A program made the position numbers and the translations under genes. Source: Marsupella aquatica (Eukaryota; Plantae; Marchantiophyta). From it: DNA of 64,000 bases. Of the stretch, positions 6,803-63,900 are shown piece after piece. Below the pieces are notes generated by a model, which saw only the letters and a program-made list of their open reading frames with translations, did not search any database and was not told the DNA's origin. How positions within the stretch are numbered: position 1 is the first letter of the stretch; the number at the start of each line of letters is the position of its first letter. The stretch spans positions 15,902,645-15,966,644 of the forward strand of contig OZ316893.1 in the NCBI GenBank assembly GCA_973895155.1. The letters are read 5' to 3'.

Positions 6803-6805
6803 GAT

Positions 6806-17750: not shown

Positions 17751-17912
17751 ATCGGGTCATTTGGGCAACAGTATTTGTACTCGGCGAGCCTCTCTGAGAT
17801 GGTAGATTTGTACGGACACGCGATCCGTATAGAATTACATTGTAAAAACATTGAAAAGTATTGTACGGTCAGTTTTTGCATGCACTTTTGGGTTCATCCT
17901 TGTATTTTGGCA

Positions 17913-24239: not shown

Positions 24240-24444
24240 CGTTGTTCATTTCATATTTGCTTGCTTGTCGCAATGGTTGACAATAGAGGGATACAAGTCA
24301 GCGGCCTCGCCGATATGTATGCATGTCGGCTGACCTTGCTAACATTCATAGTGTTTGGCCTCCTCTACAAGCAAGGGCAAGTCCTAACTTGAGATGCATC
24401 TTGGCGGACCTCGCCAAGATTCATTCCTCTACATGCAACTCAGG

Positions 24445-25160: not shown

Positions 25161-25574
25161 CGATCCATGTCGACTACCTTCCCCGACAGATGTCTTCTTG
25201 TTTACGTCTATTTTGGGCGCAATACATTATTTGATTGGATTTAAGTATAACTAAGTAGCAGTTCCCGACAAGACTACCGAGTCAGCTACAGCGGAATGGG
25301 ACAGCCAGGACAGACGGCTTGTCAAGCTCGCGTGGGAGGAAGCTTTGGCATATTTCTCGTCGGAGAAGTTAACCCTTCTGTGCTACGCTGCTGATACCTA
25401 TCATGAAGAAATAGTGCCTCGTTGTGTAAAAGAGAGAAAAAGGAAAACTCTCAAATTTGTCAAGATAGGGCAAAAGAAGCTCAATCGGATGAGAGTAGCT
25501 CAGTAGGAAGTGACAATCTCCAAACTCACCATGTAAGTATAAGATTATCAAGCTCCAGTTCTGAAGAGTAATGT

Positions 25575-36876: not shown

Positions 36877-38409
36877 TCACTCCCCAACAGTCAAAATCGG
36901 CTGTTTGACAAAGTCGTCCCTCTCCAGGTTGAGTGAAAACTTGTTTAAATACACCCACAACAGATGTTTACAAGACATGTATGGTTTCCCTCGTGTATGT
37001 CTCTTATAAAAGTCTTCACAGGAACACGAAGGGAAACAACAATATGTGTGCAGAACTTGTGAATCAGTCTCGTGAGTGGCGATCAAGTATCTCCAACCCC
37101 ATCCATTTCCAGTGCTTACCTTCTCATTTCCGATAACTCTCATGTACTCTTGTGTAGCGGAAATGATGTGCTTGAGCAACTTTGGAGTATTGCTGAAATG
37201 CTGCCGTGCACCCTTACCATTTTGGGTTTTCAACCGACGGTCCACATTAGTTAGATCGATTTGTTCCGGGAATGAGAACTTTAACATCAATTTGTAGGTT
37301 GACCCGGTTGGGGGAGGAGAACTCCCCAACTTCTTTTGCATCAACATAGGACAGTCCACTGATCTGGAATCCTAATCTCAGCAGGAAATCTATCTCGGGT
37401 TGGGAGAGGCAAGTCCCACATTGAACCTTGAGCGACTCGGATGGGGGGTAGTTGAGCTAGAGTTCTGCATCCTTGGCTCTTGTGACACTTATTGTTAGGA
37501 CAAAAGTACAACAACTGGCAGTGTGGAGATAATAATCACAACCCATGAATGGCGACTCCAACAATTCCCCCTTGCGCGGACTTACATCCAGTCTCCTTGA
37601 TGAGATTTTGACATTCATCTCTTCCAAAAACGCTTCGGTCAACCGACCCGTTGAAAACAGGTCTAGCACCTCTCCCGCTCCGCCTGAGATGCCAGGTCCC
37701 ATAAGGAACATCAACCTCTTGGATGGAAGGGATCCTTTGGGGGGCATCCCGATGGTTGTCCCCAACATCACGCAAAGGTTGAGTCCCCGTATGGTCAATG
37801 TCATCAATATTACGACTTGCATCATCACCATCGTCATCCAAAATATGGATGACTCAAGGAGAGCGACCTCTGACAGGAGTCCCCAAAGTTGTGTTCCTTG
37901 CTATTTCTAGATCCCTAGAAGTCTTTGGAACATTGATGCAACGGAATTCAGGATAAAGATTACGCCTTTTTAGACGTGAAGCAGAAGCTGTTGTTCGTGA
38001 CACTTTGTCATGTCTATGAGAGTCATTCTCGTGGATTGTAGTTGAAGCTTTCCCTTTCCTCTTTGTCGATGTTGTTCGGATATCCCCATGTAATGGTACT
38101 ACTGTTCTATAGAATTCATACTTAGCTGATGATTGAAGCAAAAGATTCGTTGCCTTTTCATAAGCATCCATTGATCCCATAGCATCGGCGTTCCTATATG
38201 CTAACTCAAAAATGGTTGGCCCTTGGCCTCTATGAACACCGGGATGAACACCTTCAATGTAGGTAGTAAATGCAGCAATTTTCCCCGAAGCACAATTCTG
38301 GTCCACCTCACATGCTTCAATCAATCCCACTAGTTTCTTCATTTGGCAGGATCTCATGGATGCATGAACTGATTCTGCTCCAGTACAATTTGGCATCAAG
38401 TCTGACTCC
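36877..38409 (-). pseudogene. MULE-3 transposase, C-terminal part (catalytic E region and SWIM)
   Basis: MPNCTGAESVHASM; CCFPSCSCEDF...CKHLLW; QPILT matches MULE-1. Confidence 0.85.
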
Positions 38410-39134
38410 CACTAGTACATTTTTGATGACTTTCCGATACTCAAAATGCGACTATTTTGCCATGTCCAAACCCGAGAGAATCGGATGTTGTCCGATACAA
38501 ATACCTTCGTAATGTCCGATGTGCACCGCATCGGATTTAGTTAGTCCGATGTGTTCCCTAACGCAACCAATATCCCATATCAGTTACATCGGAACGTTTC
38601 CAAAACTAAATGAATCGGACATTTGACCGGAAAAGTATTGTCAAGGGTCCGATCTTCAGGTTATCGGATACAATGTGCGTTAGAGACAACATCGGATATT
38701 GTCCGATGTTTATTCCAACGGACATGGTTTTCGTAATAGAATACTACGGACATAAATTGCTTAAGGTAAAGAATCGGAAACATTTTCGAAGCGGTCAATA
38801 TCGGACCCCTCTGTTGGAACATTGGACAAGGGGTCCGATGTTTCCAATATCGGATGTGAGTGTTCCGATAGTTGTGATATCGGACAATTGCTGTGATTGA
38901 GCCTTTTGTGCTCCGATGCATATCCGATGCAAGTTTCATCGGATAGACCATTGGACACTGGTTATCTTGAGGTTCTTAGTTGAGTGGGGTTGAGAGAAGT
39001 ATTAGAGATACTTTATGGAATATGTTTTATGCAAGAGTGGACATTGAGAAACAAATATAGTACCAAGAAATATATAATGTCGGGAAAATAAACACAAATA
39101 TGGTAGGGGGCTAGCTATAGTTGCTACTTACTAG

Positions 39135-42100
39135 CTAAGTGGTGGAGGGGATGTCATCATCTTCCACTACAACTACGTTGGGTCTATCCTGGACTATGGA
39201 TCGTGATCGAGTGATATATGGTATCACAATAGACCAATTTGAGTCATCCGGATAAGGTAGGTAAAAACATTGCTCAAGGTGATGTGGGAATGCAAACGGA
39301 TCTGAAGACCTCCAATTTGAGCTGATAACACTTGTCTTCAACCGAGTAAATCTGCATGCATCATCTTCACATGTACGATTGTGGCCCACAAGATTCATCT
39401 TGAACCATTTGCACTTCCTCCAAAGTAGTATGTGCATGGTACTTCATAGTTAGGATCTCCTCAATCTTTCCATAATGAGCAATAGTGGACCGAATGGGAT
39501 TCCTGTCCGATGTGCTGCTCTGTGAATCCTGGGTGAACCAACCCATGACCCCACAATCTTGTGTAGCTGCCCTCTTCTCATCGAGTCGTTCCACACAAAA
39601 GTGTCTTCCCTTGGACCACATGGCAGTCCGAGTTGTGACTATAAGTAGTGGACCATGAACAAGGGTATGAAGCTTATCAGTCACCTCTGGATAATGCAAT
39701 ACACTCTCCCCTGTACCCACCAAGGCATCCACTTCTAACAACTTTGACTTCATGTATGGGTGAAACATAGGAAATATCTGTGGTCGTCGACTATTTTGCT
39801 TCTCCTCCTCATAAAATGATGTCCACTCCCCTACAACCTCTGGTGAGTTGTACAACATAAATTTTGTGAGTTGCAAACGCTCCGCTGAGCTTAAGAGATG
39901 CTCTTTTGATGCCCCAGTGAGTCTATCATCCTCGTAGTCCGCCTCTCGTGCCGCCTCATCTATCCATCCCCTAGGAGCATTTGGATCTAGTGTGGCAACT
40001 ATGTTTGTACAATAAAACATACTCTCTGCTCCAAGATGACGCTCTACAATGCTACCTTCCACCCTAGCGCGATTAGAGACATACGATTTCATCACTCCCA
40101 TATAATGCTCTACCCAATACATCCATCGACAATGCATTGGGCCTGCAATTGCAACCTCACGCACTAAATGTATGAGAGAATGAACCTGACCATCAAAAAA
40201 TGAGGGAGGGAGTGCCTTCTCCAACTTGCACACAACCTCTACTCCAAATGTCTCCATTGCAGCAGTTTCATCCTCCTGTACCTCCTTCTGACATACCCAT
40301 CTCAAAAGCTTTCCCAATGACCAAAGGGCATCACGAAGTTCCTTACTACCCAATCCAATAATCGCAACTGGAATGACATGTTCTAGTAACCGATGATAAT
40401 CATGTGTTTTCAAGTAAGATGGCCATTTTGGAGAATCATCCCCCCCAAATGCTTTTTGGAGATTTGTGCCATAACCTGTGGGAAACCTCATTGACCCAAT
40501 ACGTCTGCGAAACTCAGTGCACTCTGCCCTACTCAAAACCCAAGGAGGATGGATGTTGGGGGGGTCACCAAGGGGGTCCAAAGATGGCCAAAAACCAAGA
40601 AGACCATGCATCCCCATCTCCTCACAACTTTCTCTCCAATTGTGGTTCTTTTCCCCATATAGATGATGAATCAATGATCTGCCCACATTCCCCTCAATGT
40701 GCATCGGATCTAACAAGTGATTAATGGGCAACTCTGACCAATATGGCAATTGTGACAATGCAGACAAATGGGTCATGCCACATCGGAGAATTTGTAATGG
40801 ATCATCTGGGTCTTGAACTCTTTCCCATACCTCTCTCCAATATGTTGGACCCTTTTGCTGAGGTTGAGGACGAGTATCGGGTTGGCCATCTTCAGTATCA
40901 TACAAGAATGATCACTCCTCCAAGGATGGTCTTCTGAAAGATATTTGGTATGGCCAATGTAAACTATCTTACGCAAAGTACTTGACTTGCGTCTTGCCAC
41001 ACCGTCCAAATCTGGTCCGCACGAAGGGCAAGCTCTATAGCCTGATGTTTGCAATCCAGAGATATATCCAAACCCTGCGCTTGATCAATACACAACCAGC
41101 CAATGAAAGTAAGTTAAATGATACAAATTATAACCAAAAAAAATTAATTAATAAGCATGGTGTAAATAGATAGCAATGGAAATAAGGGTTTAATACCCTA
41201 CCTGGCAAATCATGCATGGTCCACATAAGAATGGCCTTCATGGTAAATGTGCGGGATAAACCTCTAGTGTTGTCACGTCCGTCATAACAATCCACCCCTC
41301 TCCAAAGTTTCAAAAGCTCATCAATCAAGGGTTGCAAGTAAATGTCAATCTTTTTTACTTGCTTAGGACCAGGGATGATCATTGAGAGTAGTAGATGACC
41401 TTTCTTCATGGCCATCCATGGAGGGATATTGTAATTTGTGAGAACTACAGGCCATACTAAATATGGCTTAGCTTTACCTGCTAATGCAAAAGGACTGATA
41501 CAATCTGCTGCCAAGCCAAGTCGAGCATGTCGCGGGTCAGTTTTGAACTCACCCCATCTGCCCTCTACAAATTGATTAGCAGGAGAGTCTACCATCATCC
41601 GCATGGTACTAGAGTCTGTACCCATATCCGAACGATGTTGTGAGTGCCAGACCATATACTCAGCCAACTCCGCACAACAATATTGATGGCACAATCGAGG
41701 GATGAGAGGAAAGTACTACATAACCTTTTGAGGCACCTTCCCCGTCAACATGTCATCACGGAACCGCGGCTTCTCACACATAGGACATATAATTGCATTC
41801 TCATGCTCACCCCTGAAAAGAATGCAATCATTCACACATGCATGTATCACTTCATATTTTAGGCCAATGGACTTCAACACCTGTTTAGCCTCCTTCCAAG
41901 AGCTTGGCATGTTGTTGCTTGGTGGTAAAATACGATCATGTAGGGTACGAAAAACATCATCCAAAAGTAGGTTGCTTGCCCCATGTCTTTGTTGCACATT
42001 CAACAACAACATTATTGGTGAGAGCCAAGATAGCCTACTCCCCTCAAATATGCGAGTACGAGCATGACATTGAGCCTCTTCCCATTCCTTCTGCTGCCCC

Positions 42101-42340
42101 CCCTAGAGAATGCGGATGAGTGTTGTTGTCATCCTGGCTACCCATGTCCTCCATACCAATGTCCGCATCATCGTCATAGAACTGATCCATGAGCTCATCC
42201 ATGGCCCTCTCCTCATCAACATGATCTTCGGTTGGATTGCCCCCCTCATGTTGTACCTCAGTCTCCTCCCCACGATTGGCCACCATGGCCTCAACAAGGT
42301 GTTGCCGCATAGCTCGTGATATTACCCCAATATCAGGCAC
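39135..42340 (-). pseudogene. CACTA TnpD/Tnp2-like transposase (spliced, frameshifted)
   Basis: IHACVNDCILF..CPMC; RLGLAAD.ISPF; WPVVLTNYNIPPW; YLQPLIDEL; WTMHDLPG; LDPMHIEGNV; LKTHDYH; HCRWMYWVE; VEGSI. Confidence 0.92.
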
Positions 42341-42483
42341 TACATATTGGTTCTATCATACAACATGCATCCATGTAATGTCATCAACATCAATCTTGCC
42401 AACAATCTCATTAATCCAACATTAGAAATGGAAAATAAATTTCAGATATATATATATATATATGTATATGTAAGCCCAAGAAA

Positions 42484-43748
42484 CTAAGTTGGACGAGAAC
42501 TTAGAGACAATTTTGGTGCATCCCAGTCATAATCACACAATAACTCCTCTCCCGCTCTAATGGTCCTAATGGCCACTGTCATGATGTGGTCATCCATATG
42601 TTTCACAAAATATGGGTCTCTAGGTGGACCAAACATTTGGATCCACTCTACATTAGCCTCCAAATCTCTACCTCTACCTGTGGTACTATTGATGTATCCT
42701 GCTAAATTTCCATTCCTAACAGGGTCACCGTCAATCATCCGACAATGCCACGGCCTAGTGAACACCTCGTCTGGGTCTGAGTCCATCCTCAATGCATACA
42801 CCCCCCAACTTGGGTGTTGACGCAACAAAATGTTCCAACTCTTTGCGTTATATACAGCCCCAATATAAGGGAAAAGGTGCTCTCCATCGTAGCCACGTCT
42901 CCATGGCTTTGGAGGGACAACAATGTCATCCAAAGCATATAGACCATATCCTATATCAGCACCAATAGAGGACTCCTTCACTGTCCAAGGACGGCCCCAT
43001 ATCTCCATAGGTTCATCAATAGGAATGTAATCTGGAAATTTGAAGACACTGGGAGAAAAGTCTTTCCAAATGTCTGCAGCCCTGCCAGTGAGATAGGATA
43101 CTCCAAATCGGCCCTCAACGCCAATGTAATCTACATTTGTTGGAGGACGATCACTACCTAACACCCCCTCCCGGATGTCTATGTGGTCCACAGGCTCGTA
43201 CTGCCGCCTACATCTATGAGACCGTGCTCGTGTACGTAGGACTCTTGAAGTCCCAACCTCTGGCCGAGATACTGGTTCTCCCTCTACATGCTCATGTATG
43301 GGGATAGGAGCTGGGGGGCTAAGAGGAGGATGGGCAGGGGGGCTGCAAGCAAGTCTCTAGCCCTTGCTAGGAATCCTTCTAGCCACACAGCCTCATCAAC
43401 CAAAGGAGGTGGGGGTCTACGGGGCACCTATTTCAGCACACAATAAATTAGTGTTATTTAAATGCAAGCCCAATTGGAGTTTCATGAATGGAATTAAAGG
43501 GGAGACATATATATTACCTGGCTAGGCAAGTACCCTGGTGTATCACCCTCATGACGGCCATAGTTCTCAATGTGCTCACAAGTCTCCCAGGCATGTCGGA
43601 CCACAAGTCCCTTGCATCTCACACACCAGCAAGGTATGGGCCCTAGTGGAGCACAAGGACGCTCAAGAGGAGGGGGTGGAGGAACCTCCCCCTCTGACGA
43701 GCTCATGTCTGAGTCTGAATCCGACGTGGAACTATCGGATGTAGACAT
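42484..43748 (-). CDS. SET-domain protein carried by the CACTA, with an upstream CxC-xx-C..H exon (intron ~43428-43517; possible frameshift in the Pro-rich linker)
   Basis: WTVKESSIGADIGYGLYA (GxG motif), GNLAGYINS, ANVE, VAIRTIRAGEELLCDY; intact 235-codon ORF 42484-43191. Confidence 0.8.
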
Positions 43749-45097
43749 CTACATATCATACACATCCAACATGTAAGGCGGATTCAACAACTTATCATGT
43801 TTAAAACCACAATTAAAGAGATATATAAACATCAATTGCCCTACCTCAATGATACCCGCGCTTTGCCATGCCTACTGGGCTGTATTCTCTACACACAAGG
43901 TGTGGGATATCCAAAATCTCTGCAGGGTGGAGATGAATATGGTTACACAAATGCTGCATAAATGCAAAAAAGTACTTGACTAACTTTTGGCACATGATAT
44001 ATCAAACTTGCCAAAGCAGACCTCAATGTTCCAATCCAAAATGGATGGATGGGCCGGGGAATTACATCATACCTCATGGATGCGCGGTCTCACACTGTGC
44101 ATAGTGCATTGTCCAAGAACAAAACCCTACCTAGCTACCCCCCTCAACCCAAAAAAAACAAACCTAGCTACCCCTCGATCAAAGCCTAGGTACTGCACAT
44201 AAAATCCAATCACAACCATTAGTGTAACAAAGGCTTAACATTATCCTCAAAAAATGTCTAACAATATCCTATGTATTAAAACCCTGTACCAATAAATCCC
44301 AAAACCCCTCAAAGCCCTAAAGTCCTTCAAAGAGAATCGGGATCAATTATAGTAAAAGAGTAAATCTAGGTATCACTTACTAGCCAAAACACCTTGACTT
44401 ATCCTTGCATCCATCACTCAATGTTGAGCAAGTTAAGGCCCTATAATTACATTACTATACAACTTAGCTTTATAAATTTAGGGTGCAATAAATTAAGCAT
44501 GCAATCACAACCATATTTTAGTTATCTTAGGAAATACAAAGTCATGAACTAACCCCAAAATTGTAGTTGCGAAGAAGGAACTTGCAAGAGGCCGGGTAAC
44601 ATATACACAATATGCCATCCCGTTCACGGTGTTACCTAAAAAAAACCTGATATATTCAAAACAACCACAAAAAAGTGACTACAACCCTCCCTTCTATTAC
44701 CCCACCCAATTACTTAATTCCATGCTCCACATACAAACCCAAACACCCAAACTAAACCCAAAGTAAATAGATTTAACCTCCTATGGGACCAAAACATGGA
44801 ATCCGTTATAGCTGAACGAGGGGTCCGATACTAAAACAAACGGAAGCAGCATCGTAAAAGCAGGAGAAAGAAAAGCAAGGAGGGGTCCGAAGCAAAACGC
44901 ATCGGAAGGTCCGATTGTAGGTCCGATTCTTTCGGCTTCGGACATTGCGTTGCATAAAGTATCGGAAACAACAGACCTGTTTTCAAAAAATAAGTCCCGA
45001 TGCGGATGCGAAGATCCGGGCATCGCGCCAAGCTTTGCATTCCGTGTTTTGCAAGGCCGGGAGGCTCAGGTAGACGTCGGTGGGCAAGGAGAGAGAC

Positions 45098-47514
45098 ATG
45101 GTGGGAGGAGGATCAGGTGGTGGGGACGGGGCTGGACCCTCTCGGCCCTATGATGAGATTATGAGGGAGATTTTTATGAGTAGGGCAAGGCTAAGTGCTG
45201 AGGATGCAGAGAGAGTTGTGCCACTTCTTCAGCCCTTGATTGATGGATCTAGGATCGAGGCAGAGAAAGCTACGGTTGCAACCATTACTGCAGAGAAAGC
45301 TGCAAAGAAGAAGCGAAAGGAGGCAAAGAGAGGCAGGGAAGATGGTGAGGAATCCCTCTCTCCCCGAAAAAAAGAGAGGAAGCTTTGCAAGGCAGCTAAG
45401 GAGGCTGAGAAGAAGAGAGTGGAGGAGTTAAAGCGAAAGGAAGCTGAGAGAGCTCTAAGGCCTGAGCTAGCCCTAAACTCAGGTGGCTCCCCAATGCCGA
45501 GAGGATACAATCTCTTCCGCAACCAGTTCAAGCAGGTGGTGAAGGCCAATTTGGGCCATTAGATTACTGGGGAAGGAAGACTGAGGAGGAGAAAGGTCGA
45601 ATTCGAGAGCAAGTGAAGGAGCGATTCAGGAATGGGGCCTCCCTTGATGACAGGTTCTTGAATAAGAGGATATCAGCTTCACTTTCAGACATGCGAAATC
45701 ATCAGAGAGAAGTTCAGGAAGTACCTTGCTGATTTGCCAATTGATTCAGAGGTGGTCAGGGAGCAAGGCTGTCCAGATGTGCTCTCCCCAGATGAGTGGG
45801 CAGCTTGGCTTGAGGAGGAATTAGCAATCCAAGCCTCGCAAAAAAAGAGACAATGGGACCACGAAATCAGCTTGGCAGAGGAGAAGCGGAAGGTTGGGGA
45901 GGAAATTGACATCCTCCCCCTCCAACAAAACCTACGGCAGTGGGGAGCTCAAGCAGTACGATTAAAAGAGCCTCCCAAGGACATCATCAAAGCATTGGAG
46001 GGAGTCCAAGGGCGGCCCATCGTCACTCACCGCATGGGGCAAGGAGGCTCCAATCGACTGAAAGCAGAGTTTGTAAGTGCCTTCTCCCTCCTCCCTAGCT
46101 CCTCCCCCCCGACCACCTGACCTTCTCTTGCAAAGAATGACTCAATTTCTGCTGCCGAATGCCTTTATGTCGTTTCAGCCCGATGTTTTTTGCTCTCGGG
46201 ACTGTTCTGTCCGATACTCATCCGAAGCTTTTAGCATCGAACCTAGTATCGGACCTATTGTTATGCCATTTAGGGTTACCGGGATCCGATACTGTTCCGT
46301 TGCTTTAAGTATCGGAAACAACATCGGACCCCTCGTAAGAACAACGGATTTTTTTAAATGTTGCTCTTTCACTCAATTAGGGGTATGGGTTTGCATTCTT
46401 CAGTACCCTAAGAAGGCATGGGACCCCTTACAAGAATTGGGAAAAGTTGGGCCGATGCAAAGACTAGTTTTCATGCTAATGGGTTTCTCGTTTGGTATTG
46501 TGATGTGTCAGGAGCGGGACTGGGGTCGACCTATTGGGCCATCAGAGAGGGAGTTAGCAAGGAGGGATGGACCCCAAGCTCTTAAGCTCCACCTTGAGGA
46601 GGAGCTGGGAGAGGTAATTGGTGTTGAATTGGCCCTGTATAGGTTCAAATTGTTTTTGGTTGTGGTCAATATTAGAGAGCTTTCAAGGAACTATGTTTTC
46701 AAATGCAATTTAACCCTACTTATGTATTGTGCAGGATGAGGAGACAGGGTCTGATGAGGGAGAGGAGGGTGAGGGTGAGGAGGGTGAGGGAGAGGAGGGT
46801 GAGGGAGAGGAGGGTGAGGGTGAGGAGGAGGGTGATGGTGAAGAAGGAGAGGATGGCGAGGGAGAGGAGGGAGATGATTCTGAGGTGTCTGTGCCCTTAG
46901 AGGGTGCGGCAGAGTGATCGGGGAGGGTGCCCCGAGTTACCCCTACCCCTACAGTCCCTCATGTTGCCCCCACATTAGCACAGAGGGGTAGGTCACATGG
47001 TGTTCATGGTGTGGCCTCCCATCAGTCGGGAGTGTCACGGAGTGCGAGGCCCGGCCCCTCAGGGGGTAGTAGAGGTGGCGCGGGACCAGGCCATCGCTCT
47101 GGAGTACTATCCGGTACACCTGGCTCTTCTCGACGAGTGGGTCGTGACATGGAGGATGGTGGCTCTAGGGGGCGAGCACCATCACGTGAGTCTGGTGGGA
47201 GTACCGCACGGCATGGGCCACAGACAGCATCTGCAGGGGATGCATCCCATCACTCTCACAAGTCTACCGGAGGGGGAGATGGCTCCTTCCACTCTACCGT
47301 GTCAGTGGGTTTAGAGACATCTGTTGCACCTCAGCATCCTAGCGGTGCATCTAGTGGGTCAGGGTCCCGGCCAACATCAGGCCAACCCACTGGTGAGCAG
47401 GTGGTTGCCACGGTTGTGGGCAGCCAAAGAGAGGAGGGGTCTTGTGTTCCTGGATCTGTACCACCCCCTCGTTCTCGCCCGCAGAAGAAGAAGGGATGCA
47501 ACACACCTTTTTAG
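45098..47514 (+). pseudogene. CACTA second gene (TnpA-like/unknown; Lys/Glu-rich helices, GE acidic tract, Gly/Ser tail), spliced
   Basis: ORFs 45080-45562, 45734-46120, 46729-46917, 46927-47514 with GT-AG gaps; THRMGQGG resembles the CACTA TnpA-type H..G.GG motif. Confidence 0.5.
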
Positions 47515-48397
47515 AGCTTAGTGGCATGAGCTAGATATGTAGTGCATGGTAGCTTTTATACTAGCATATATATGTACCATCTAGTATAGTAAGCTACCTA
47601 GGCTACTACATATTGTACATACCAGGGGGTTTCCCTTTTTGAATATGATATTTTGAGCTTGTACATATAACATTCTTTTGCATCAATCATAATTTAACCC
47701 AATTTGGCCCATTTCACCATGAAATTAACCCTAAACCCTCAAATACCAACCCCATGAGGCCCACTCTTCTATCAAGAAAGAATCACCCTTGTCCGTTACT
47801 AGTCCAATGCAATATACATCAGAAAAACACCTAATTATCCCATGCTTTCAGTGTCGGGACATCCGATACTCTGCTCTTCAAAAAGTCCTATACTAAATGC
47901 ATCGGACCCCTCGTCCAGCAAGCATGACAAAAATCCAATGTCCGATACTGACCACTTCGGACCATCCAATATAAAAACAATCAGATTGTCTGATACATGC
48001 AACATTGGACCTTCCGATCTGTAATCCAACGGATGTTATGATACTAAACGCATCGAAAACTCTGATGCTATAAATTACGCACATTGTGAAACTCTAGGTA
48101 ATGGAAATTCCAATATGATATGTATCGGACGCCAAGTTTTGCGATTAAGGTCACCCAAGTGGATATCCGACTCTCTTTGCATCGGATACAAAATAGTCCG
48201 AAATGGTTTGCTTCGGAAATACCGATGCAGAGAGAAACGGAAAGTCCGAAGGTTGTCCGATGGTCGGTGTCCGATATGTGGAGAATGGGAACATACGAAG
48301 CGGGTTACATCGGAAGTACCAAATTTAGTGTGCAACTTTTGTGAAGGGATCCGATGGAGATGGCATCGGATAAAGGCCCAAAAATGTACTAGTGTCC

Positions 48398-50247
48398 ATT
48401 GCGATTTGCGTCTGCAAAAAAAAATCCCCCGTCAAAAATAGACATGATATGCTAACGAGATTGCTAGCAAAAATGAGGACATCAGAGAGAAAGAAAATAG
48501 GTCACTTACTACGCAGATGAAGTTCCCACACTACCTCCATCTCACTACCTACCAAGAAATCCATCCTTGGAGAGACTTCAATTTCCTAGCATAGCAGTTT
48601 CCTTCCTTCCACCAACGATGGATTTCATCGGCAACTCAATACGCCTAGACATATGTTGGTGCTGTTCTTAGCCTTTCCCACATTTTATAGTGCTCCCGAT
48701 GCTGATCTTCCCGAATACCCTCCAATGTGTGCCTACGAAGAGATTGAGCAAAGTGAAAGGCGTCATGAATTGTGCTCCTTCTTAGGGTGACGGACTCCTA
48801 AAAAAAACATTCTGAACTGCAATCCATCCAGCCTCGGCATTATCAGCAATAAATCCTCCAATGACTGGGTCGCGCACATCATGATCAAAGGCTGCAACTT
48901 CAATCATATGTCTCCATGCTGTTTCGAGAGACAAGGAGTCCTCTGCACGGAGCTCACAAGTGAAGATGGTACAAAGGGACCTGTAATTATGGTCGTACAC
49001 ATGGGCACTGAATGTCAGCCACCCAATGCTAATTCGCCACATCACATCAAAACTGACCCATGCAGCTTCCAGGACACCTCCACTCCTCATCTGCCTGAGA
49101 ATATCAACACCCAAACTTGGGCCATTTGTACTCATTTTGAAGACATGAGCCCAATTGTACTCATTTGTACTCATTTTGAAGACATATGCTTTGCAGCATT
49201 TGACTCAAGAGACGGCTTAGGATAGACGTACAAAAGTTTAGTCGGACATTCTTGGATGCATAGAGGCCGCTCATCACAGAATCCGCACACCAACCCTCCT
49301 TCCTCCACAAACTCACCAAGATGGAACGGCTCAGTAAATTGTCCATTTCCTTGGAAAGAATAGTCATTTTTGGAACCGGTGTGCTTCAACTTTCTACATA
49401 CCAGATTTTGATATTCAAGGACACCCGCACATCTTACTTTTGACACAGACCAGTGGTTGCAGGGTTTGAGATTAGCTGAAGTTGTGACAAGTCCCCGGAA
49501 AAGTCTCGTCCAAGGGTAGCCATCATTATCCCTGTCCATGTCCTGAAGACCATATCCTCGACAAAATTGACCTTCGACTAGAGGAAGCTCAAAAACACAG
49601 TTCCCATTGTATGAAGTGGGCAAAGTCTGCACTTGAATCTCCTTCCAATCGTTTCCCCTTTGGAAATTTGCCAACTTGCTTGACCCAGTAATATTGAGGA
49701 AGGCATCGTATGCACTTACTCTATATAGAACTGGCTGAGATTGAAACTTGTTATGACTCACAGCTTCAAAAAGGGCTTTCTCAGAAGACTTCGTAGATAT
49801 AGAAGAGAGATCCCGACCCACACTCTCAGGGGAGATGTCGATAATTTTGGGTACAGCTAACGATGGTGGAGTCAGCAAGTCTGGATCTAAAACACTGATA
49901 TGTGCAATGTCATCCTTACATGAGACCATCTCTACAATTGAACCACACTTCAGGTCCCAAACTCTCTATGGCAATATTCCTAAACCATTATCCGGCACCT
50001 CGTGATTTTTGGACCCTTTCCTAGAATAAAGAAGGAACAACTTCTAGATAAAATCATCTTCCAAAAGCCCAAACCTCGATAACAGGAAAGACTCCTTGAC
50101 AGAGATAACATTATTCTCCAGATTATCTAGAACAACAACATCACCCGTCTTCTTTCTCTCGATCAAACCTTTGATCGCAGAGAAGACATGCTGACAATTT
50201 TGGACATTACAATCTACAACAATCCTCAATTGTGAGATACGTTGCAC
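48398..50247 (-). pseudogene. MULE-3 transposase, N-terminal/central part
   Basis: TGDVVV..SRFGL N-terminus, KVRCAGVLE..CGFC..C (GCM-like), WVSFDVM, AHVYDH, FIADNA, AFHFAQS; intron ~48412-48509. Confidence 0.85.
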
Positions 50248-52291: not shown

Positions 52292-52634
52292 TGTTGAGCA
52301 TAGACTACATTTGCAACAGCAAGCCCATGAACCATCCAACGCACAAGAGTCGACACAGAGAGATACGTGGTTCACCTCCACATGAGGCTACGTCCACAAG
52401 AACACACAAGAGTTTTCTGCACTCTAGGCCGACCGGCCATACCAAGCATCCACAGTACAAGCTCTCCCTATCTCTCAACTAGCTCCGTAACAATGAGCCT
52501 AAGTTCCACCAGGGTCTAGCATCAGCCCTAGCTATATGCACAACAACACTACGGCTAACATTAGCTTAGACCTAACCCGAGTTAGACTAACTATGGTTAG
52601 CTCATGAGTCACAAGACTAGAGCAATATCTAACA
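52292..52634 (-). repeat. Copia-1 3' LTR
   Basis: Direct repeat of 58862-59205. Confidence 0.95.
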
Positions 52635-52841
52635 AACTCCCCCTTGACTCTTGTCTTGGGGACTGGACTAATTGCTACCATATGGAATCCTTAGCGGGAA
52701 GTTCTAGACAATCACCAAACCAGGTCTCCCCCTAAAAACCACAAGGGTTAACTAAGGGTTAACTAGAACTAAGCCGTAGCCAAACATGAATGAATTATCC
52801 ATATACAAATAGTCACACATTGCTAAATAATTCTACTTGCA

Positions 52842-55800
52842 CTACAACTGCAAAACCTGCAAAGTAGCACGGTGTCTTGAGAAACTCTCCAAAGGAATCA
52901 CTTTGGTAAAAGCATCCGTGGGATTGAGCTTTCCATCAATCTTGACTAGCTCAAAAGTTTTATCAGACACTGCTTGCCTGATAAAATGGTACCTGATATC
53001 AATGTGCTTCACCCTGCTATCCATCACCTGGTTAGCAGCCAAGTGAAGAGCACTCTGACTATCACATTTTAGAGTCATTTTGTCATGCTCTAAACCCATC
53101 TCCGCGATCAACTTGTCCAACCAAATTGCTTCCTTTGCTGCTTTTGCTGCTGCAACATACTCTGCTTCTGTAGTAGACTGAGATATACACTTTTGCAAGG
53201 TAGTTTTCCAACTGATATATCCTCCTCCAAGAGTAAAAACAAACCCAGTTGTAGACCTCCTTGTATCCAGACAGCCTCCATAGTCAAAATCTACATAGCC
53301 AACTAACGCTCTATCTAATCTGTTATCAAATAATAATCCATAGTCCTTTGTTCCCTTCAGATACTTGAGAATCCACTTCACAGCTTCCCAATGTACCTTC
53401 CCTGGATTTGACATGAATCTACTAACCTTGCCCATCGCTAGGGCCAAGTCGGCCTAGTACAAGTCATCAAATACATCAGACTGCCTACTGCCTTCTCATA
53501 AGGAATCTTAGCCATCAGACCTTTCTCCACAGCATCCATAGGAGAGAAAGCCGATGATAACTTGAAATGTGAAGCTAAAGGAATACTCACTGGCTTACAG
53601 TTTTCCATGTTGAATCGTGCGAGTACTTTCCTCACATACTGGCCTTGACTCAAGCACAACTATCCAGTATCAGAGTTCCTAAAAATCTTCATCCCTAAGA
53701 TCCTCTTGGCCTTACCAAGATCCTTCATTCTGAATTCAACACTCAATTTTGCCTTGAGACTATCAACCTCAGATTGATCTTTAGCTACAATCAGCATGTC
53801 ATCCACATAGATCACTAGAATGATGAAACCAAATACATCATTCTTGACTGATTTTGTATACATACAAGGATCATACACCATTCTTGTAAAACCTTAGCAA
53901 GCATGAAATCATCAAACCGCTTGTTCCACTGTCTGGGAGACTGCTTCAATCCATACAAGGACTTGAGCAATCTGCAAACTAAGTTCTCTTGGCCCCTCTT
54001 TATAAAGTGTAGTGGTTGTCTCATGAAGATCATCTCTTCCAAGTTGCCATAGAGAAAAGCAGTAACAACATCCATCTGATCCATCACCAGACCAAAAAAC
54101 ACAACAAGCTGACACAAGATCCGAATTGTGGAATACTTAGCCACCGGTGAAAAGACCTCATTGTAATCCACTCCTTTCTCCTGAGTGAACCCCTTGGCAA
54201 CAAGCCTTGCCTTGTAGATCTTATCTCCACCCTCTGAAGGACTATCCTTCAACTTGTAAATCCACTTGCTGTCCACCACTTGCTGACCTCTTGGAAGCTC
54301 CACTAGCTCCCATGTCTTGTTATCACTCAAAGATTGCAACTCCCTCTACATTGCTGCATTCCACTCATGCTTCTGCTCTGAAGCACAAGCCTCACTGTAC
54401 GAAGAAGGCTCTCCTTCTTCCAAGATCAAAGCCATGTCATCATTATCAGGTGCAATGTCAATATCATCTAGCTTAGATGAGTCTGCCCATTGACCATACT
54501 TGATGGGAGCTCTAGTAGAACGACTGGAAGTTCTTCTAGTAGATGACTCAGGCTGATCTGTTGCTGCTGCTGGTTGAATTTGAGGTACCTCAACAACAAT
54601 CTTCTCCTCTTGTTCCATCACAGGAACCAGCTCCAAGCTAGAGCTTCTCCATCTCTCCTGTTATGAACTGCATCATGACTAATCTCCCCCTCAACCCGGT
54701 CCGGGATGGGAGATTTCCCCTTGTCAATATGGGAGTCTTGAGAACTCTCCCCCTCCTTTGATGATCTAGACTCATTAAAGGACACATCTCTACTCACAAT
54801 TAGTTTACAAGTTACTGGATCCCATAACCTATAACCCTTCACACCTTTCTGATAGCCAAGGAAAATGCACTTCTTCGACTTGGACTCCAGCTTGGATCAA
54901 AGCTGGGAAGGTGTAAGCACATAAGCATCACATCCAAAAATCCTCAGATGTGAGTAATCTGTTGGACGCTCGTACCTCATTTCAAATGGCGTCTTGAATC
55001 CAATAGAATTGGATGGAGAAAAAATTACCAAATAAGCTGCAGTGTTGACAGCTTCAGCCCAAAACTCATGTGGTAAGCATGATTGACTCAACATACTCCT
55101 CGAGCGGTCCAATAGTGTTCGATTGAGTCTCTCAGAAACACCATTCTGTTGAGGAGTATAATTTGTTGTGAGATGGCGGGTAATCCCCTGCTCCTTACAA
55201 TACTTCCAAATTCCCCGGAACTGTATGCACCGCCGTTATCCGATCAAAGATATCTCACCTTATTACCAGTCTGATTCTCAACTTGGGCTTTCCACTCCTT
55301 AAAAGTGGCAAAAACATCATACTTATTGTGTAGAAAGTATATTCACACATACCTTGAGTAATCATCTATGAACGTGACATAGTATAACCGTCCAGAATGT
55401 GAGGGAGTAGGGGCTGGACCCCACACATCACTATGTACATACTCAAGTACCTCCTTGCTGGTGTGAGCTCCAACTCCGAACGGTTTCCTCTGTTGCTTCC
55501 CAAGCACACAGTGCTCACAAAATTCCAACTTACAAGACTGCAAATTAGAAAGTAATCCTTTTTTCTGAAGAATAGCCAAACCTTTTTCACTCATGTGGCC
55601 AACGGAAGTGCCACAGCCGGACCGTCTCCTCATGAGATAAGGTTACATTGGCTTCATCACAAACTACACTGCCCTTCAAAACGTATAGATTGTTATGTCT
55701 TTTTCCCTTCAATATAACTTTAGTACCAGTTGAAACCTGAAGGACACCATTAGCAGAACTCCACTGATGGCCATTTGCTTCTAAAATTCCAAGTGAAATG

Positions 55801-57117
55801 AGATTTTTCATCATGCTGGGAATATGTCTCACATTCTTCAACGTTCTTACAGCACCATCAAACATCTGAAATCTTACAGATCCAAGTCCAACAACTTGAC
55901 ATGGGATTCCATTTCCCATCAACACTGACCCGTTGGAAACCGTGTAAGAACTGAAAAAATCTCTCCTAGAGCAAATGTGAAAAGTACATGCACTATCTAG
56001 AATCCAGTCATCACTACCTGGATTTGACACTACATTGAGAGCATAACCTTGGCATCACAATATATCATCATCATAGAGTAAATCTACCTCATGCGAGCTC
56101 GATGCCGCGTTAGCAAATGCAGTAGGGACCTTTACTTGACAATCCCTTTTCATGTGGCCAGGCTTGCCACAATCCCAACATGCAAGAGGCTTCCTCTCAT
56201 AATTTCCCTCTGGATTTAGATCTCCCACATGATGTAGATCTAAACCTGTTCTGTCCATTTGAGCGTTGCGTTGCTCTCCCACGGTTCACATTGAGCGCAA
56301 TGCCAGTAGAAGATGCTGTCTGTGATTGACCCAGCTTCTTTTGAGCATCATCAGACAGTAAAGAGCTCACCACCTCATTATATGATATGGACTTCAGATC
56401 TCTGTACAAGAGCACATGTTTCAAGCCCTGATATGACGGCAGTAAGGAGCTTAGCAAAAGCAAGGCCTTATCCTCATCGTCAACTCCTTTTCCTAGGTTT
56501 GACAGATCCACCGCTAGACTGTCAAACTCATCCAGGTGATCCTGCATCTTGCTCCCTTCCTTGAGCCTGAGGCTCATCAAGAAAGACTTCTTGTACAGCT
56601 GGTCTGACGCATCTTCCCGGTAGTACTTCTCTCTAAGAGCCTTGAATAGTGATGCGCAATCCGCATAATCATCCAGCTACTTGATGATGTGCGGCTTGAG
56701 ATATAGCATCATTGCATTGACAACAATCACCTGCTCCTGTCTCCATTGTCTCACAAAAATCTCCTCCTCTTCATCATACTGCTCTTGCGATGAAAGCAGA
56801 TGAGCTAAGCCCATGGCCCGAAGAACACCCTTCACTTGCTTCTCCCACAACAAGTAATCAGTACGACCATCATACTTCTCCACCTCAAACTTCACTCCTC
56901 CAAATCTAGCCATCTCCCTCTTCTTTCCTACTACCGATAGCTCTGGTAGTAGTACAACTTCCTCCACTGCACGCCGCACCGGTGATCGTACCGGTGACAC
57001 TAGTTCTTCCTCAAACGGTAGCAGCTCCTCCTCAGACTCTCCGTCTGACTGTCGCGATCCTGAAGCTTCACCGATGCCAATTCTTCCAATATCCTCCAAG
57101 TCACTCATATGAAACAA
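52842..57117 (-). pseudogene. Copia-1 gag-pol (gag, CCHC, protease, integrase, RT, RNase H)
   Basis: FEVEKYDG; CWDCGKPGHMKRDC; WILDSACTFH; CEHC; YKARLVAKGFTQ; YVDDM; STTEAEY; KHIDIRYHF. Confidence 0.95.
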
Positions 57118-58861
57118 TCACGAAAAAACATCTTTTTTTGAAACTTCTCATAAAACTCAAAACTCAACACCACCGCGTAGCCCACGAAGCTAGGAGTCCA
57201 ATACTGAAAGCCGAAATCAAAATTGAAATTCAACAAAAAAGTTATTCAAATTTTGGTCGGGGTGGGTAAAACCTTGGGAAACTCCCCCATTTTGACCACC
57301 TCAGAGAATAACCAAAAATACCCAGTACAACCCGTCGTCGGAATCGCGATGTGATTGGTGCGCCTTGTTGCTAACTCCAGTGGCAACGTCCTCACCGAAA
57401 AAGAACCAAAAAAGTTCCCGTTCGGCGGACGAAATCTTCGTCGGACGGCCAAAAAACAGCTCTTTGTTTTTTTCAAGAATATTCCCGCACAATTCGACAG
57501 GTCTCACAGGGGGCCGTCCCCTTGTTGGAGCGGTTAAAATGGAGGGCGGCAGGTCCCGACATCAAGTAGAACAAAAAGAGGAGAAAAAAGGCTAAAAAAG
57601 GGTCCTTAAAGGGGGTGCAAAGTCCCTAAATTCTAAAAATACAGGTTTAAAAAAGGCGCATCCGCATCACCTATACGCGAGGAAGGAAAAAAACAGGCAA
57701 AAAATAGGCCCTAAAGGGGGTCCTTAGTGCCCCTTAAAGCCAAAATACACCCCGTATGGGGTCGGGGGTACATGGGCAGGCGAGTGCGGGCGTATGAGGG
57801 GCGGGAGGCTCGCAGGTCGGCTGCATACGCAGCCGGAGATGGGGTCCCGGGGGCGTACCATTGCCGTGCACCGGGGAGGGGTGCTGGCAGGAGGCAAGCG
57901 CAAGGTGGGACTACGGGGGCGTAGGGCGAAGACAGGGCCGGCCTTAAGGCGAAACCTGCCGGGAGGGAGTCGGGGCCGGCTTGCGAAGGGTGAGGTGCGG
58001 GGCGCGTGCCGGCCGGCGCTGCAGACCCCACCGTATAAACGGGGTGCGGGGGGGCAGGCGATTACGGGGTCACGGGGGCCGGGGTGTGTAAGGTGTGTAT
58101 ACACACCTCGTGTGTGTATACACACACCAAACACCCCCTTTAAAACAAAAAGTGACCCTTAAAAATAAAATGCCGATTACACACCTTATCCGCCGCTGTT
58201 TGAAACAAAGAAAGTGAACCCCGCTGACAGAAAAAGTTTCCAAATTGCACCGGCACAGTTTGCAGCTCCAGTAGAGTAAAAAAATTCCGCCACGACGCCT
58301 TCACTCCGCGTCAAGTGGCAATCTCGGGCTCTAAATGACCGCCTTGCCGCGATCAAACCGTTGAGCCGTAGCACTTCGCATTTCTTCCACCGAGTCAGAT
58401 GTCACAAAGAGAAACCCGGTTCAGATAGGAACAAGCTCCATAGCTTGTGAAAAAACCTGAATGCCTCCGTCACTCGTCACGTCTCACTTGGTAACAACTC
58501 GGTAGCAATCGAGCTACCGAAACGACCAACTCGCTTCAACCTTCAAGTTGAGCTATAATGCGCGATCCCTCCCGCACTGCACAGCTCACACCGTTGAAAA
58601 ACGCAAACTCTGGTCTCTCCCCCGAAAAGCCGTCAAACATGAATAAAACCTGAACGACACAAATTTCAATTCCTCCGCACCATGGATATCGATCAACGAG
58701 TTTTAACCACCGTTAGAAAGCCCTCTCACTAACCTATCCGCTCAGCCACACACAATCGAGTTTCATGCGACAAAACTCTGAATGTCCCATTGACAATGAA
58801 CGTTGGAAGAAACCTGTCACGAAAAAATCTCGTCACCTCCCAGGCATGCTCAGATACCACT

Positions 58862-59205
58862 TGTTGAGCATAGACTACATTCGCAATGGCAAGCCCATGA
58901 ACCATCCAACGCACAAGAGTCAACACAGAGAGATACGTGGTTCACCTCCACATGAGGCTACGTCCACGGGAGCACACAGGAGCTTTACTGCACTCTAGGC
59001 CGACCGGCCATACCAAGCATCCACAGCACAAGCTCTCCCTATCTCTCAACTAGCTCCGTAACAATGAGCCTAAGTTCCACCAGGGTCTGGCATCAGCCTT
59101 GGCTATATGCACAACAACACTACGGCTAACATTAGCTTAGACCTAACCCGAGTTAGACTAACTATGGTTAGCTCATGAGTCACAAGACTAGAGCAATATC
59201 TAACA
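58862..59205 (-). repeat. Copia-1 5' LTR
   Basis: Adjacent to the PBS; direct repeat of 52292-52634. Confidence 0.95.
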
Positions 59206-60923
59206 AAAAGTACTTCCACCCCGGTCAATTCTTTGACACCAAAACAAAACTTTGGCTTCACCAATGGGCTGTATGGGAGCAGGTCGAGTCAATTTGTTTT
59301 TCACTCATGTCTAAGATTATTTCTGAGTTGATCCCAACTATTCCAGATGCAAGGATCCTTATTTTGTCTGAGAAGACAAAGCCACCGCTAATCCTTGACA
59401 TAGAGGAGGACTTTGAAGATTTCCAAACGAGAGTGAAAACTCATTTTTTCAAACAGATTTGGCCACCAAAGTCGGGTGAGAAGATTGACATCTCACTTTT
59501 TTGGAGGAGGGCGAAGAGATATACGTATTGTTTTTTTGTGGATAGAGAAGTTGTTGACAAAACATATGGTGGTCCTATCTTGCTTGCTTCTTGCCTTGGA
59601 TAGTAGGGGTGAAAGAGGATCCAACCTCTGTTAAATACGAAGAGTACTCGACGTACCCATGTGAGGGAGTGGAGGCTCCAAGGAAGATGAGTGAGTGGGA
59701 AGTCCTCCACTGTCCATGGTATTTAGAATCAGACAAATGGGCAGTGACATTTGACACTGTAGAGAAGGCAGCCTTTCATATGATAAATCGAGGCTTGATA
59801 CTAGAGTCGTCTTACATTACGGAGTCCAAATTAGCTCCTGTAGAAGCAGAGGCTGGCGGATGTGAGGCAATGGAGAAAGTTGTTCTTGGTGTGGCCGCCA
59901 TTGTTGACCGGAGTCAATCGAGGAGACCTCGGAAGGTGCCGGTGAAGGACTCGTCTAAAGATGGATCAATCTTGTCTGGCAAGCAAAGTAAGTCCTTTTC
60001 TCCTCTTATATATTTTCATACTACACTCGGAGTAATTTTGTCTGAGTGACCTGTCTGACATGAACATGTTTTTCAGAGAAGAGAAAGGCAGCAGCCTCCA
60101 GGAGTTTGAAGAGTGGGGCGGATGATGGAGAAGAACCCAAGTCTCCTGATGTTGAGGTCACAACAAAATCTGCTGTAGACCTTGGTTCAATCAAGCGTTT
60201 AAAGAGGAAGCGCAATGTGCAAATTCTCTCCGACTCGGATGAGGAGGAAGCATGCATCGCTCGAGGAGTAGCACAAATGTGTGGTCTTAAGAAGGACGGT
60301 GAGAGGCTTTTCTTGGCAAAAAGCAATCTCACTGAAACTGCAAACTCAATTAGCCAGAGGAAAGTAAGACCTCCCTGGATGGGCGATGTAGATCAGTGGT
60401 TGTCTGGGATGAGCAAATCGAGCAAACACCCAAATCCAGTAATAATCAATGGCAAACCGTACTCTGGGATTGGTGCTCACTTGGGTTTCATTTTCCTTCC
60501 CACGGGTCATAGAACGAGTGTCACAGACCGGGAGGTCCCAAAGTGGAATGTTTGGAGTGAGAAATTACCATATTATGTTTTTGGATTCATGCGTCCGATG
60601 CTTGCCGATGATGGTTATGTTGCAGTTCTTCACAGCTATGACTATAACCAGATGAGACAAAAAAATTCTGCCGTCGAGCAGAAGAACAAATTCAAACATG
60701 TCCGACAGTATTCAGTTTTGCTTTCATCTCCTTTGTATCAGGCAGATATGGACATAGAGGTAAGATATTCTATTAAATTCCTCAATATTTTTTGTGCAAT
60801 TTTTGCTAGCGAGCTTGCTAACCAAAAGTACCCATTTCTGACAAATCCTTGTTTTCAATTCAGGTAGTTACTCTCATTATGGATGTCTTCTACAAGGTGG
60901 AATTCTCAGCAAAAGTCCCAAAA

Positions 60924-63900
60924 TGTTACAAACCTAATACACCAACAATGATATGATCTTCTATTCCAAGGAGAGAATATATATACATATGGTAACTCTG
61001 GTTGGAGTTAACCATGGGTTCTAACTATAGTTAGTATACCCAATCATATTAGGGTATAACACTCCCCCTTGGGTGTTATCATTTTAGGAAAAATGTGACA
61101 ACCAATCTTCTATCAATGTATATGAATAGGTGATGGGGGTGCAACCTCATTAAAACCTTCCCTACTTTCTTTTGTGGAAGGAAAGAGTATTGCCACCCTA
61201 CATCCCTTTAAGTTTTAAAATAAAGTTGTGTCTTTCTAAAGTAATCTGTATTTGCATTTGTCTATTCCCTACTTTTCTAGACTAATTGCATTCAGAGTAT
61301 ATGTTTTTAGGTTTGTATTTTGGGTTGTGGTGTCGTTCTGCAAGAGGTCCATCGAGTGTAAGTGGTGTTGAAGTCGGTTGTATGAGAGTGGAATGGCGGG
61401 TTCTCTTTCGTGCAAGTACTGTCGATGTCGGGGTGAGCTGCAATGGTTGGAGATGCAATTGCCCTGGGTCTTTGTGATAGGGTCAATCGGAGAGATGCCG
61501 GTGCGTCTTCTTGAGGATTCATCAAGTTTCGTCTGTGGCTCTTGAGGAAGTCGATTGCCAGAGGTTAGTCGAACAACTTGTGTTTTGTCAGGCTGGTGTT
61601 GTTCGTTCTCGCAACGTTCATCAGGGAAGTCAAATCTCCCCCTCAATCTTTGTATCCTGCAAAAGCTTTGTTACGCTGCGTATTCCTATTGAATAAGTTA
61701 GTGATTGATGGAGGGACGGTGGTAGAGACTTCGTAAGGATATCTGTCTTGTTCTGATTTCCTGGAATCCATTGTACATCAATTTCTTTTCCTTGTTGTTC
61801 GTGTGAGAAAAAAAAATTAGGCGCAATATGTTTTGTACGTTCGCCTTTGATGAATCCGGTTTTGATTTGAGTTATGCAAGGCATGTTATCTTTGAAGAGT
61901 ATTGTAGGTTTGGTTAATTTTGGTTTACCTGTGATGATCAGAATATGATCTAAGACTTTACGTAGCCATAAACACTCACGACTTGTTTCGTAGAGAGCAA
62001 TTATTTCAGAGTGATTGGAAGAAGTAGTAGTAAGAGTCTGTTTGGTGCTGCGCCATGAAATTGGTATCGGGCCCATCAAGAAAATATATCCAGTTTGAGA
62101 TTTACCATCTTGTGGATCGGATAGATAGCCAGCGTCAGCATATCCTGTTAAACTGTAATCTGCATCATAAGGAAAGTATAATCCAAAGTCGGATGTACCA
62201 ATAAGATAACGGAATATCCTTTTAATACCGTTCCAGTGTCTGATAGTGGGCTGTGCGCTGTGTCTTGCGAGTAAGTTGACCGTGAATGCTATGTCCGGTC
62301 GAGTTTGATTAGATAGAAACATAAGAGCACCGATAGCCGAAAGGTATGGCATATCTGAACCTAGTAAAGGTTTGAAATCTTCTCTCTTCCTGAACATATC
62401 TTTTTGTATGTCCAAGGTACGTATATCCATGGGGGACTTCACAAATTTTAACGAGTCCATATGGAAATGTTTTAACACCTTCTTTGTGTAAGTCTCTTGA
62501 TGTAGGAGAATGCCCGTTTGTAAATGTTCAAATTGAAGTCCAATGTAGTAAGAAGTTCTTCCTAAATCCCGCATTTCGAACACGCGTTTTAGCGTTTGTA
62601 TAGATTCTTGCATCATCTTGTTTGTACCAAACAAGTTGAGGTCATCTACATAAATAGCAATTATTATGAATTCAGGTCCTTGATTCTTTATGAATAGACA
62701 AGGCGCAATCTCTGAATTTTTGTATCCCATGGATATCATCTCTGTTTTGAAACGCTGGTACCAGGTACGTCCACTTTGTTTTAGGCCGTAGAGTGAACAA
62801 AGAACCTGAATAGCAAATTGGGTCTTTCTATTTCCAGGAGTTTCCTGGAATGCAATTGCTTTAGAGGTATTATGGAGTACCAACTTATTTAAGTAGTCAA
62901 ATTCATTTGCATGTTTGTTACTATGCATATTTGAATCATGATTTGAATTCGCATGGAAATTGACACGTTCTATAAGCTGTGGTGGAGCTTCCATATAGAT
63001 CACAGTGTCAAGTTGACCGTAAAGATAAGCGGTCACTATATCTAGTTGATGATTAAGAGTTTATGTTGGATTGCAAATGCTATCAAGTAGCGGTAAGTAG
63101 TTACATCCATGACTGGTGAATAAGTTAGGTCATAATCTGTGCCATAGATTTGAGTATATCCCTTTGCAACGAGTCGAGCTTTATATCTCACAATTTCTCC
63201 TTGGGAATTCCTCTTTTTGGTAAATATTATTCTGTACCCTGTAAGGTGTTGGTCTGGGGTAGCAATGGTTATAGGACCAAATACTTTTCGAGAGATCAAA
63301 GAGTCTAACTCTGAGTTCATGGCTATTTTCCATTTAGGCCAATCTGTTTGGTTTTGTGCTTCTTGGACAGATTTCGGGTCAGGTAAGTTAGTAATATCCT
63401 GTGATATATGAAAGGCAAATTGATCATCAGGTATTACTCTAGTTCTATCTAAGATATGGCCAGTGGTATTATAATGTATGGCTATCTCTGGGTGATATGA
63501 TTCTGAAATGTGAGTATGGGTTTTTGGTCTCATTTCAGATGATGTTGGTAGTTTTCGCCTTTGTCTGAGTTGTTTATCAACAGCCCCTACAGGGCGTCCT
63601 CTCTTGGGTTTTAATTGTTGATCAGAAGCTAACCGAGTTCCAATTTGAATCGGGGATGGGGTATTCGCTGCTGGGATATGGGATTTTGTAACATTCGCTG
63701 TATCTGCGAATGAATCAGGTATGGCTTCCATAATCTTTGTAAGTTGAATTATTCTTCTGACTTCTAATTCAGCCTGATCTGTGCGTGGATCAGGACAGAG
63801 TTCAGGACTAGCTTGCCAGGTGAATATTTTTGGTAATGTTAGCTGTTTGCCCTCTGGTAATGTCAGAGTGGGGAAGATGGTTTCATAAAAGTGACAATTT

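Follow-up and report, generated by a model that had tools for sequence, protein, structure and literature searches.

The 64,000-nucleotide stretch of the Marsupella aquatica genome analysed here (assembly GCA_973895155.1, contig OZ316893.1, positions 15,902,645 to 15,966,644 of the forward strand; hereafter the window, with positions counted from its first letter) contains a CACTA transposon of 9,985 bp at 38410-48394. Within this element, on the minus strand, a SET-domain exon lies between a finger-coding first exon and the body of the transposase TnpD. A first-pass annotation, made from the letters alone, had described an intact, stand-alone SET gene in this place. The parts of the gene are, in coding order:

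43518-43748, minus strand: exon 1, with a Ser/acidic leader and a C-x-C-x2-C-x13-H-x4-G finger related to PF13963
43428-43517, minus strand: phase-0 GT..AG intron of 90 nt, with the same junction in P0002 and P0045
43337-43342, minus strand: run of six C (C6), at or near which a one-base frame shift severs SET from exon 1
42484-43427, minus strand: exon 2, with a Pro-rich linker, a conserved N-terminal extension, SET and its own stop; conserved core at 42487-43122
42353-42355, minus strand: predicted distal 3' splice site TAG/AAC (the slash marks the boundary), phase 0, of the TnpD exon, inferred from the sequence
39135-42352, minus strand: TnpD body, with an acidic linker, PF02992 and PF13960, interrupted by stops and frameshifts

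The SET/TnpD gene and its element

Regarding the SET frame, it runs from stop to stop over 290 codons (42484-43356, minus strand) and contains the motifs GYGLYA, YINS and GEELLCDY that had been pointed out before. A profile search, suggested together with that description, passes the Pfam SET cut-off (29.1 bits versus 22.4, E 1.4e-6), and the Cys-rich pre-SET and post-SET parts are indeed absent from the sequence of the frame, in which Pfam sees SET alone. A GTG at 43191, if taken as the start, would fit the length of 235 codons given earlier, and the earliest in-frame ATG is at 43008. The TnpD exon (42352) is co-oriented with SET and begins 131 nt downstream of it, in agreement with the first description, and it is followed by PF02992 and PF13960, which Pfam detects with E 1e-37 and 1e-27 respectively.

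The preceding exon with CWCVRC...HIENYG was also found as described; it occupies 43748-43518 and closes with a phase-0 GT donor, the AG of its 90-nt intron is at 43428, and exon 2 begins VPRRPPPPLVDEAVW. In a gene model of Calypogeia fissa (P0002, 74% identity) the exon-1 motif continues through the same junction into SET in one frame, and so it does in a Sphagnum protein of 343 residues (P0045). Therefore, the SET domain is not stand-alone, but the second exon of a two-exon gene.

Nor is it intact in this copy. The spliced frame of the window terminates after ...PYMSM, and the SET frame is offset from it by one base; comparison with P0002 and P0004 locates this shift in the C6 run or close to it. 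One contig of run X2 had an additional base after 43341 (depth 1,747 of 10,812), and the frameshift may instead be an assembly error. TnpD is broken as well, by a frameshift near 42109 and a stop at 41716. Since SET is cut off from exon 1 and TnpD is broken, the window holds a dead copy; an undamaged product of exons 1 and 2 would have about 390 residues.

The element itself bears these marks of a CACTA (En/Spm) transposon: terminal inverted repeats (TIRs), a target-site duplication (TSD) of 3 bp, a TnpD with PF02992 and PF13960, and subterminal repeats. Its ends start with CACTA and finish with TAGTG, their TIRs agree in 16 of 16 bases (CACTAGTACATTTTTG), and TCC/TCC brackets them, which bears out the boundaries proposed at first. 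In the end bins richest in the words TCCGA/TCGGA, these occur 12-18 times per 500 bp, compared with 1 on average over the window. Position 38406 is joined to 48395 in contigs of runs X2 and X4 (two of the four runs), as at an empty site, although this joint may come from another copy of the flank, because the flanks of the element are repeats themselves. Reads cover 30 of 30 bins of the element in all four runs and numerous variant contigs were found, therefore this is a multi-copy family.

Linkage of the SET exon and kinship of exon 1

A scan of metagenomes turned up SET relatives, at 33-45% identity, in 24 loci. The TnpD exon comes directly after SET (about 145 bp) in 16 of the 18 loci with at least 280 bp downstream; exon 1 stands upstream of SET in nine loci and, farther up, a relative of the opposite-strand gene of the window in six. 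Two loci, L006 and L008, share the same CACTA end in different flanks. Most of the 24 are of the Sphagnum type by protein identity (L006 is 89% identical to P0045), and the SET of the window is about 42% identical to this subfamily. P0045 heads a cluster of 360 members, and among the 40 of them that were examined S. jensenii, troendelagicum, balticum, fallax and compactum are listed. A profile search found 134 representatives at E <=0.001, and Riccia, Calypogeia, Adiantum and Ginkgo are the named sources among the 17 looked up. In Riccia three models fuse pieces of SET with Transposase_21. The exon-1 profile matches 11 of the 134 representatives, four of these by construction; among the others, many were called as genes of a single exon, which are unable to contain exon 1.

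The SET tree joins the window with P0002 and P0003 (100/99) and these with the Sphagnum type into a group of 16 rows (100/97), with Riccia outside. In a midpoint-rooted tree of 32 Transposase_21 regions (P0249 was left out because its match was too short) the six rows linked to SET fall together (82/94), adjacent to P0232 and P0233 (100/99 together). The order of the TnpD tree agrees with that of the SET tree, with weaker support. Judged from these sequences, the pairing of SET with TnpD is old, and its simplest reading, given the midpoint root, would be a single gain of the SET exon between finger and TnpD body.

SET cores were compared by Nei-Gojobori counts after removal of one duplicate locus. 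The median dN and dS of L001 against 21 copies were 0.15 and 0.43, and those of the window 0.62 and 1.64, near saturation. Since dN is well under dS, the core is constrained between subfamilies, with dN/dS about 0.35-0.38. The first-pass annotation had called SET an integral accessory gene, a view that would have been undermined if SET occurred in this copy only and were near-identical to a host exon; SET is not confined to one copy, its linkage is conserved across subfamilies, and we consider it very probably integral to the element.

Exon 1 probably belongs to the transposase as its own first exon. The C-x-C-x2-C-x13-H-x4-G pattern of this exon is that of the N-terminal finger of angiosperm TnpD, the spacing of 13 being identical in 11 of 12 matched PF13963-type N-termini (23 proteins scanned, 10-16 allowed), with which the core of the finger aligns without gaps. 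Furthermore, P0232, a single-frame TnpD of 1,135 residues without SET, begins with a finger of the same type and matches the exon-1 profile (E 2.8e-8), the angiosperm profile (6.5e-6) and PF13963 (0.0056), and by bridging both profiles it ties exon 1 to the TnpD finger. Thus the resemblance to the transposase-associated Zn domain, noticed at first sight, holds in pattern, in spacing and through this bridge, but the PF13963 cut-off was missed, the best exon-1 homolog reaching 13.6 bits and P0232 17.3 versus the 27.7 needed.

The frame of TnpD starts right after a phase-0 TAG, which reads GATAG/AAC in the window and CATAG/AAT in 14 of 15 matched loci; L006, missed by the script, also shows the TAG boundary. 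These 15 loci are near-copies of one lineage and count, with the window, as two independent cases. Because the SET and TnpD exons both follow a phase-0 AG, the donor of exon 1 could join either acceptor in frame, and it is quite probable from this arrangement that exon 1 is shared through alternative 3' splice sites.

As for side observations on distribution, C. fissa has two subfamilies with 31% mutual identity (P0002, P0053, P0032, P0037), one resembling the window and the other the Sphagnum type (overall 57%, SET part 69%), and this reflects either an ancient split or a horizontal transfer between moss and liverwort. A distant Calypogeia member of the SET clade (P0121, P0259) has another N-terminus, in which Cys/His repeats weakly resemble DUF5763 (E 0.007-0.09). 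Other distant members, P0190 and P0194, are found in the fern Adiantum and in Ginkgo at 25-26% identity, and could be other transposons or domesticated genes.

Element ends, second gene and neighbouring repeats

The remaining features of the element are:

38407-38409, no strand: left TSD TCC, flanking the element
38410-38425, no strand: TIR, the 3' element end in coding orientation, matching the opposite end in 16/16 bases
38410-39000, no strand: 21 copies of subterminal repeats whose core is TCCGAT
45074-47514, plus strand: broken second gene, divergent from SET/TnpD, possibly TnpA-like
47801-48394, no strand: subterminal TCCGAT repeats, 11 copies, and the TIR 48379-48394; 5' element end in coding orientation
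48395-48397, no strand: right TSD TCC

The second gene gave no match in Pfam scans over 45074-47514. It has a conserved HR(M/L)GQGG motif, its piece 45662-46117 has relatives of 29-36% at the equivalent place in six related loci, and its counterparts in L006 and L008 lie at about 7000-8900 on the minus strand. By its resemblance, it is possibly TnpA-like. It stands upstream of, and head-to-head with, the SET/TnpD unit, and in this it differs from the tandem TnpD-TnpA layouts that have been described (PMC13547354).

The CACTA is nested in a further broken repeat (36877-38409 and 48395-49965) whose frames carry a SWIM-like C-x-C...C-x-H, and similar frames occur at 12506-15819; by its motifs, this repeat presumably resembles a MULE-type element. 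Elsewhere in the window we found a broken LINE-like element (3308-10545, plus strand), a Copia-like element (52413-59207) with 224-bp direct repeats, 98% identical, at 52413 and 58984, and another RT frame of Copia-like type (61630-63060, minus strand); these names are likewise presumptive and given by motif. Repeat arrays with units of 26, 44, 81, 132 and 169 bp lie at 11275-12435, 15635-18521, 22202-22532 and 24407-25208; several of them have a common GGCGAGGGTCTC core, some have CCCTAAA runs, and the arrays are possibly the ends of another transposon family.

Predicted products, alternative explanations and known systems

Profile and structure-level comparisons show the SET fold of exon 2. 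Its identity to solved SETs is about 20-29%, and no class of histone site is favoured. The family keeps the motifs GxG, YxG and ELxxxY, including the catalytic Tyr, to which we attribute the usual roles in the S-adenosylmethionine (SAM) site and in catalysis; even very divergent members show hardly any variation in the SAM-site glycines, the Asn and the catalytic Tyr, and the Asn of the RxxNHS motif is kept in 56 of 61. On these residues, SET is probably catalytically active. The hallmarks of the host SUVH/SUV39, E(z), ASH1 and Trx proteins (pre-SET, CXC, AWS, post-SET and accessory domains) are absent from the sequence and from the Pfam results.

We propose, with a probability of about 0.6, that the window contains a broken copy of a moss and liverwort CACTA lineage whose TnpD gene holds a SET exon and would give two spliced products, one of them a chromatin-modifying enzyme. 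In intact copies, alternative splicing would yield finger plus transposase and finger plus SET. The latter is a predicted SAM-dependent lysine methyltransferase serving the element, which would most likely modify chromatin at the element's own copies, and the finger may, as a guess, target it by binding DNA or by contacting the transposase. A histone substrate with an anti-silencing role is a tentative extension, less likely than not. The fullest version, in which an ancient SET exon gained once makes an active histone methyltransferase that the finger would bring to the copies, its mark blocking H3K9, H3K27 or DNA-methylation silencing, appears rather doubtful.

A number of observations weigh against this proposal. 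Neither protein can be made by the window copy, and stops or shifts interrupt the SET match in 15 of the 24 loci. TnpD is missing downstream of SET in L016, where other DNA cuts SET, and in L022, a member of a distant clade with 354 bp available. In the TnpD tree, the SET-linked group carries no star (ultrafast bootstrap 82). Constraint on exon 1 and on the linker is only weak (dN/dS about 0.74 and 0.79, L001), the direct alignment of exon 1 with PF13963 by hhalign is weak (probability 12.5%, E 0.0023), and Pfam reports PF13963 in only two of 12 exon-1 proteins, with E 0.08 and 0.14. In the Sphagnum-type family the pN/pS of the SET core is 0.95 for singletons and 0.79 for shared changes, with little sign of selection; such neutral-looking change is what dead copies give and it lends no support.

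This neutral-looking variation, the frameshift in the window and the gene annotations that Adiantum, Ginkgo and Calypogeia members of the wider SET clade carry would all suit a host exon captured recently and taken along passively by a few copies, as in Pack-CACTAs. However, the layout is the same in subfamilies about 42% identical, in mosses and in two liverwort groups, and because of this conservation the explanation is largely refuted; dN/dS of 0.35-0.38 between subfamilies, only 25-26% identity to the Adiantum and Ginkgo proteins, and coverage that extends to SET as to the other parts of the element (30/30 bins, 4/4 runs) also oppose it, and we regard it as highly improbable. Two separate tandem genes, with exon 1 belonging to SET only and a TnpD that has lost the finger and uses its own ATG, are a less remote case, still improbable. 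The TnpD exon has an early in-frame Met in both subfamilies (8 codons in for the Sphagnum type, 15 for the window), none of the 45 exon-1 hits is a gene model joining exon 1 straight to TnpD, and Arabidopsis EN/SPM families are described in which TnpA and TnpD are separate genes in tandem (PMC13547354). Nevertheless, the 131 nt between SET stop and TnpD exon leave little room for a promoter, the TnpD frame starts exactly at the phase-0 TAG in both subfamilies, and the finger is present in the sister TnpD P0232 and in 17 of 29 long relatives.

A more serious competitor, to which we give somewhat better than one chance in three, accepts the SET fold but not the histone writer: the protein would be a catalytically weak reader or decoy, or would methylate a non-histone target such as TnpD or the TnpA-like product and so tune transposition. 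In 59 of 61 members Ser stands in place of the NH-motif His, and the residue at the Phe/Tyr switch varies (Ala 16, Cys 14, Val 10, Ile 6). Besides the small finger there is no reader domain, identity to solved SETs is low and favours no histone-site class, and PR/SET clusters are among the atlas neighbours. Against it, the near-invariant SAM-site glycines, Asn and catalytic Tyr are those that an enzyme would have, and the same His-less motif occurs in an active bacterial H3K14 enzyme, which counters a dead protein but not a non-histone substrate.

Regarding minimal SETs, the first-pass annotation had likened this architecture to viral and bacterial ones. LegAS4/RomA, SET8, SET7/9 and the viral SETs do share the fold, the catalytic motifs and the lack of Cys-rich pre- and post-SET, and LegAS4, which also lacks the usual His, shares the His-less YINxS motif; the family differs from them in its conserved N-terminal extension and insertions, and identities of about 17-29% do not establish close kinship.

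The idea of a SET gene on a transposon is already known, even within the EnSpm superfamily, because there are reports of such genes for the HarbingerS and Phytophthora MuDR families (PMC12730594), for Helitrons and for Plavaka (both bioRxiv 10.1101/2025.02.11.637652). The first three also carry a SET methyltransferase gene, in other superfamilies and hosts, and the available descriptions mention no first exon shared with the transposase. Plavaka, of the EnSpm/CACTA superfamily in red algae, has PAG2, an N6-adenine methylase fused to SET, and the likeness lies in a long-kept SET accessory gene with a proposed chromatin role. By description, PAG2 is a separate gene in a three-gene PAG1-3 cassette of 17-19 kb elements, whereas here the SET exon stands between exon 1 and a plant-type TnpD body (PF02992/PF13960) in a 10-kb element; a DNA methylase domain, as in PAG2, was absent in Pfam scans of the element's frames and of 50 relatives. 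With maize En/Spm and Arabidopsis EN/SPM3 and 7, where TnpA and TnpD are described as products of one gene by alternative splicing (PMC13547354), our element shares the superfamily, TIRs and TSD, subterminal repeats and two products predicted per transcription unit; however, its second product would be finger plus SET and not TnpA, the TnpA-like candidate lying upstream on the opposite strand. With VANDAL/VANC the likeness is in the proposed role, an element factor relieving the silencing of its own family, but VANC is described as a MuDR protein inducing hypomethylation, whereas the window element has an enzyme fold for which this role is proposed by analogy. Searches of the open literature, outside which Repbase and subscription papers lie, showed no account of a CACTA from a land plant in which a SET exon follows the transposase's first exon.

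The window element is complete and bounded by its TSD, and it represents a distant subfamily; the closest relative with a name comes from a leafy liverwort. It suggests a route to an accessory enzyme, a new last exon placed behind the transposase's first exon. In Sphagnum and Riccia the copies go under the annotation of host 'SET domain-containing proteins', and counts of the SET family would be inflated by this. Among the anti-silencing factors encoded by transposons few are understood, with VANC as the model, and the reported transposon SETs were, according to the accounts available, inferred from domain content. Since this family offers many intact frames (the P0045 cluster, P0002), a small, confidently modelled enzyme and growable hosts, it becomes directly testable whether a transposon writes chromatin marks of its own. 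If the fullest version of the proposal is true, a plant transposon would have its own histone writer, and this may help explain the abundance of CACTAs in peat-moss genomes, of which they are reported to make up 6.8% (PMC9946827).
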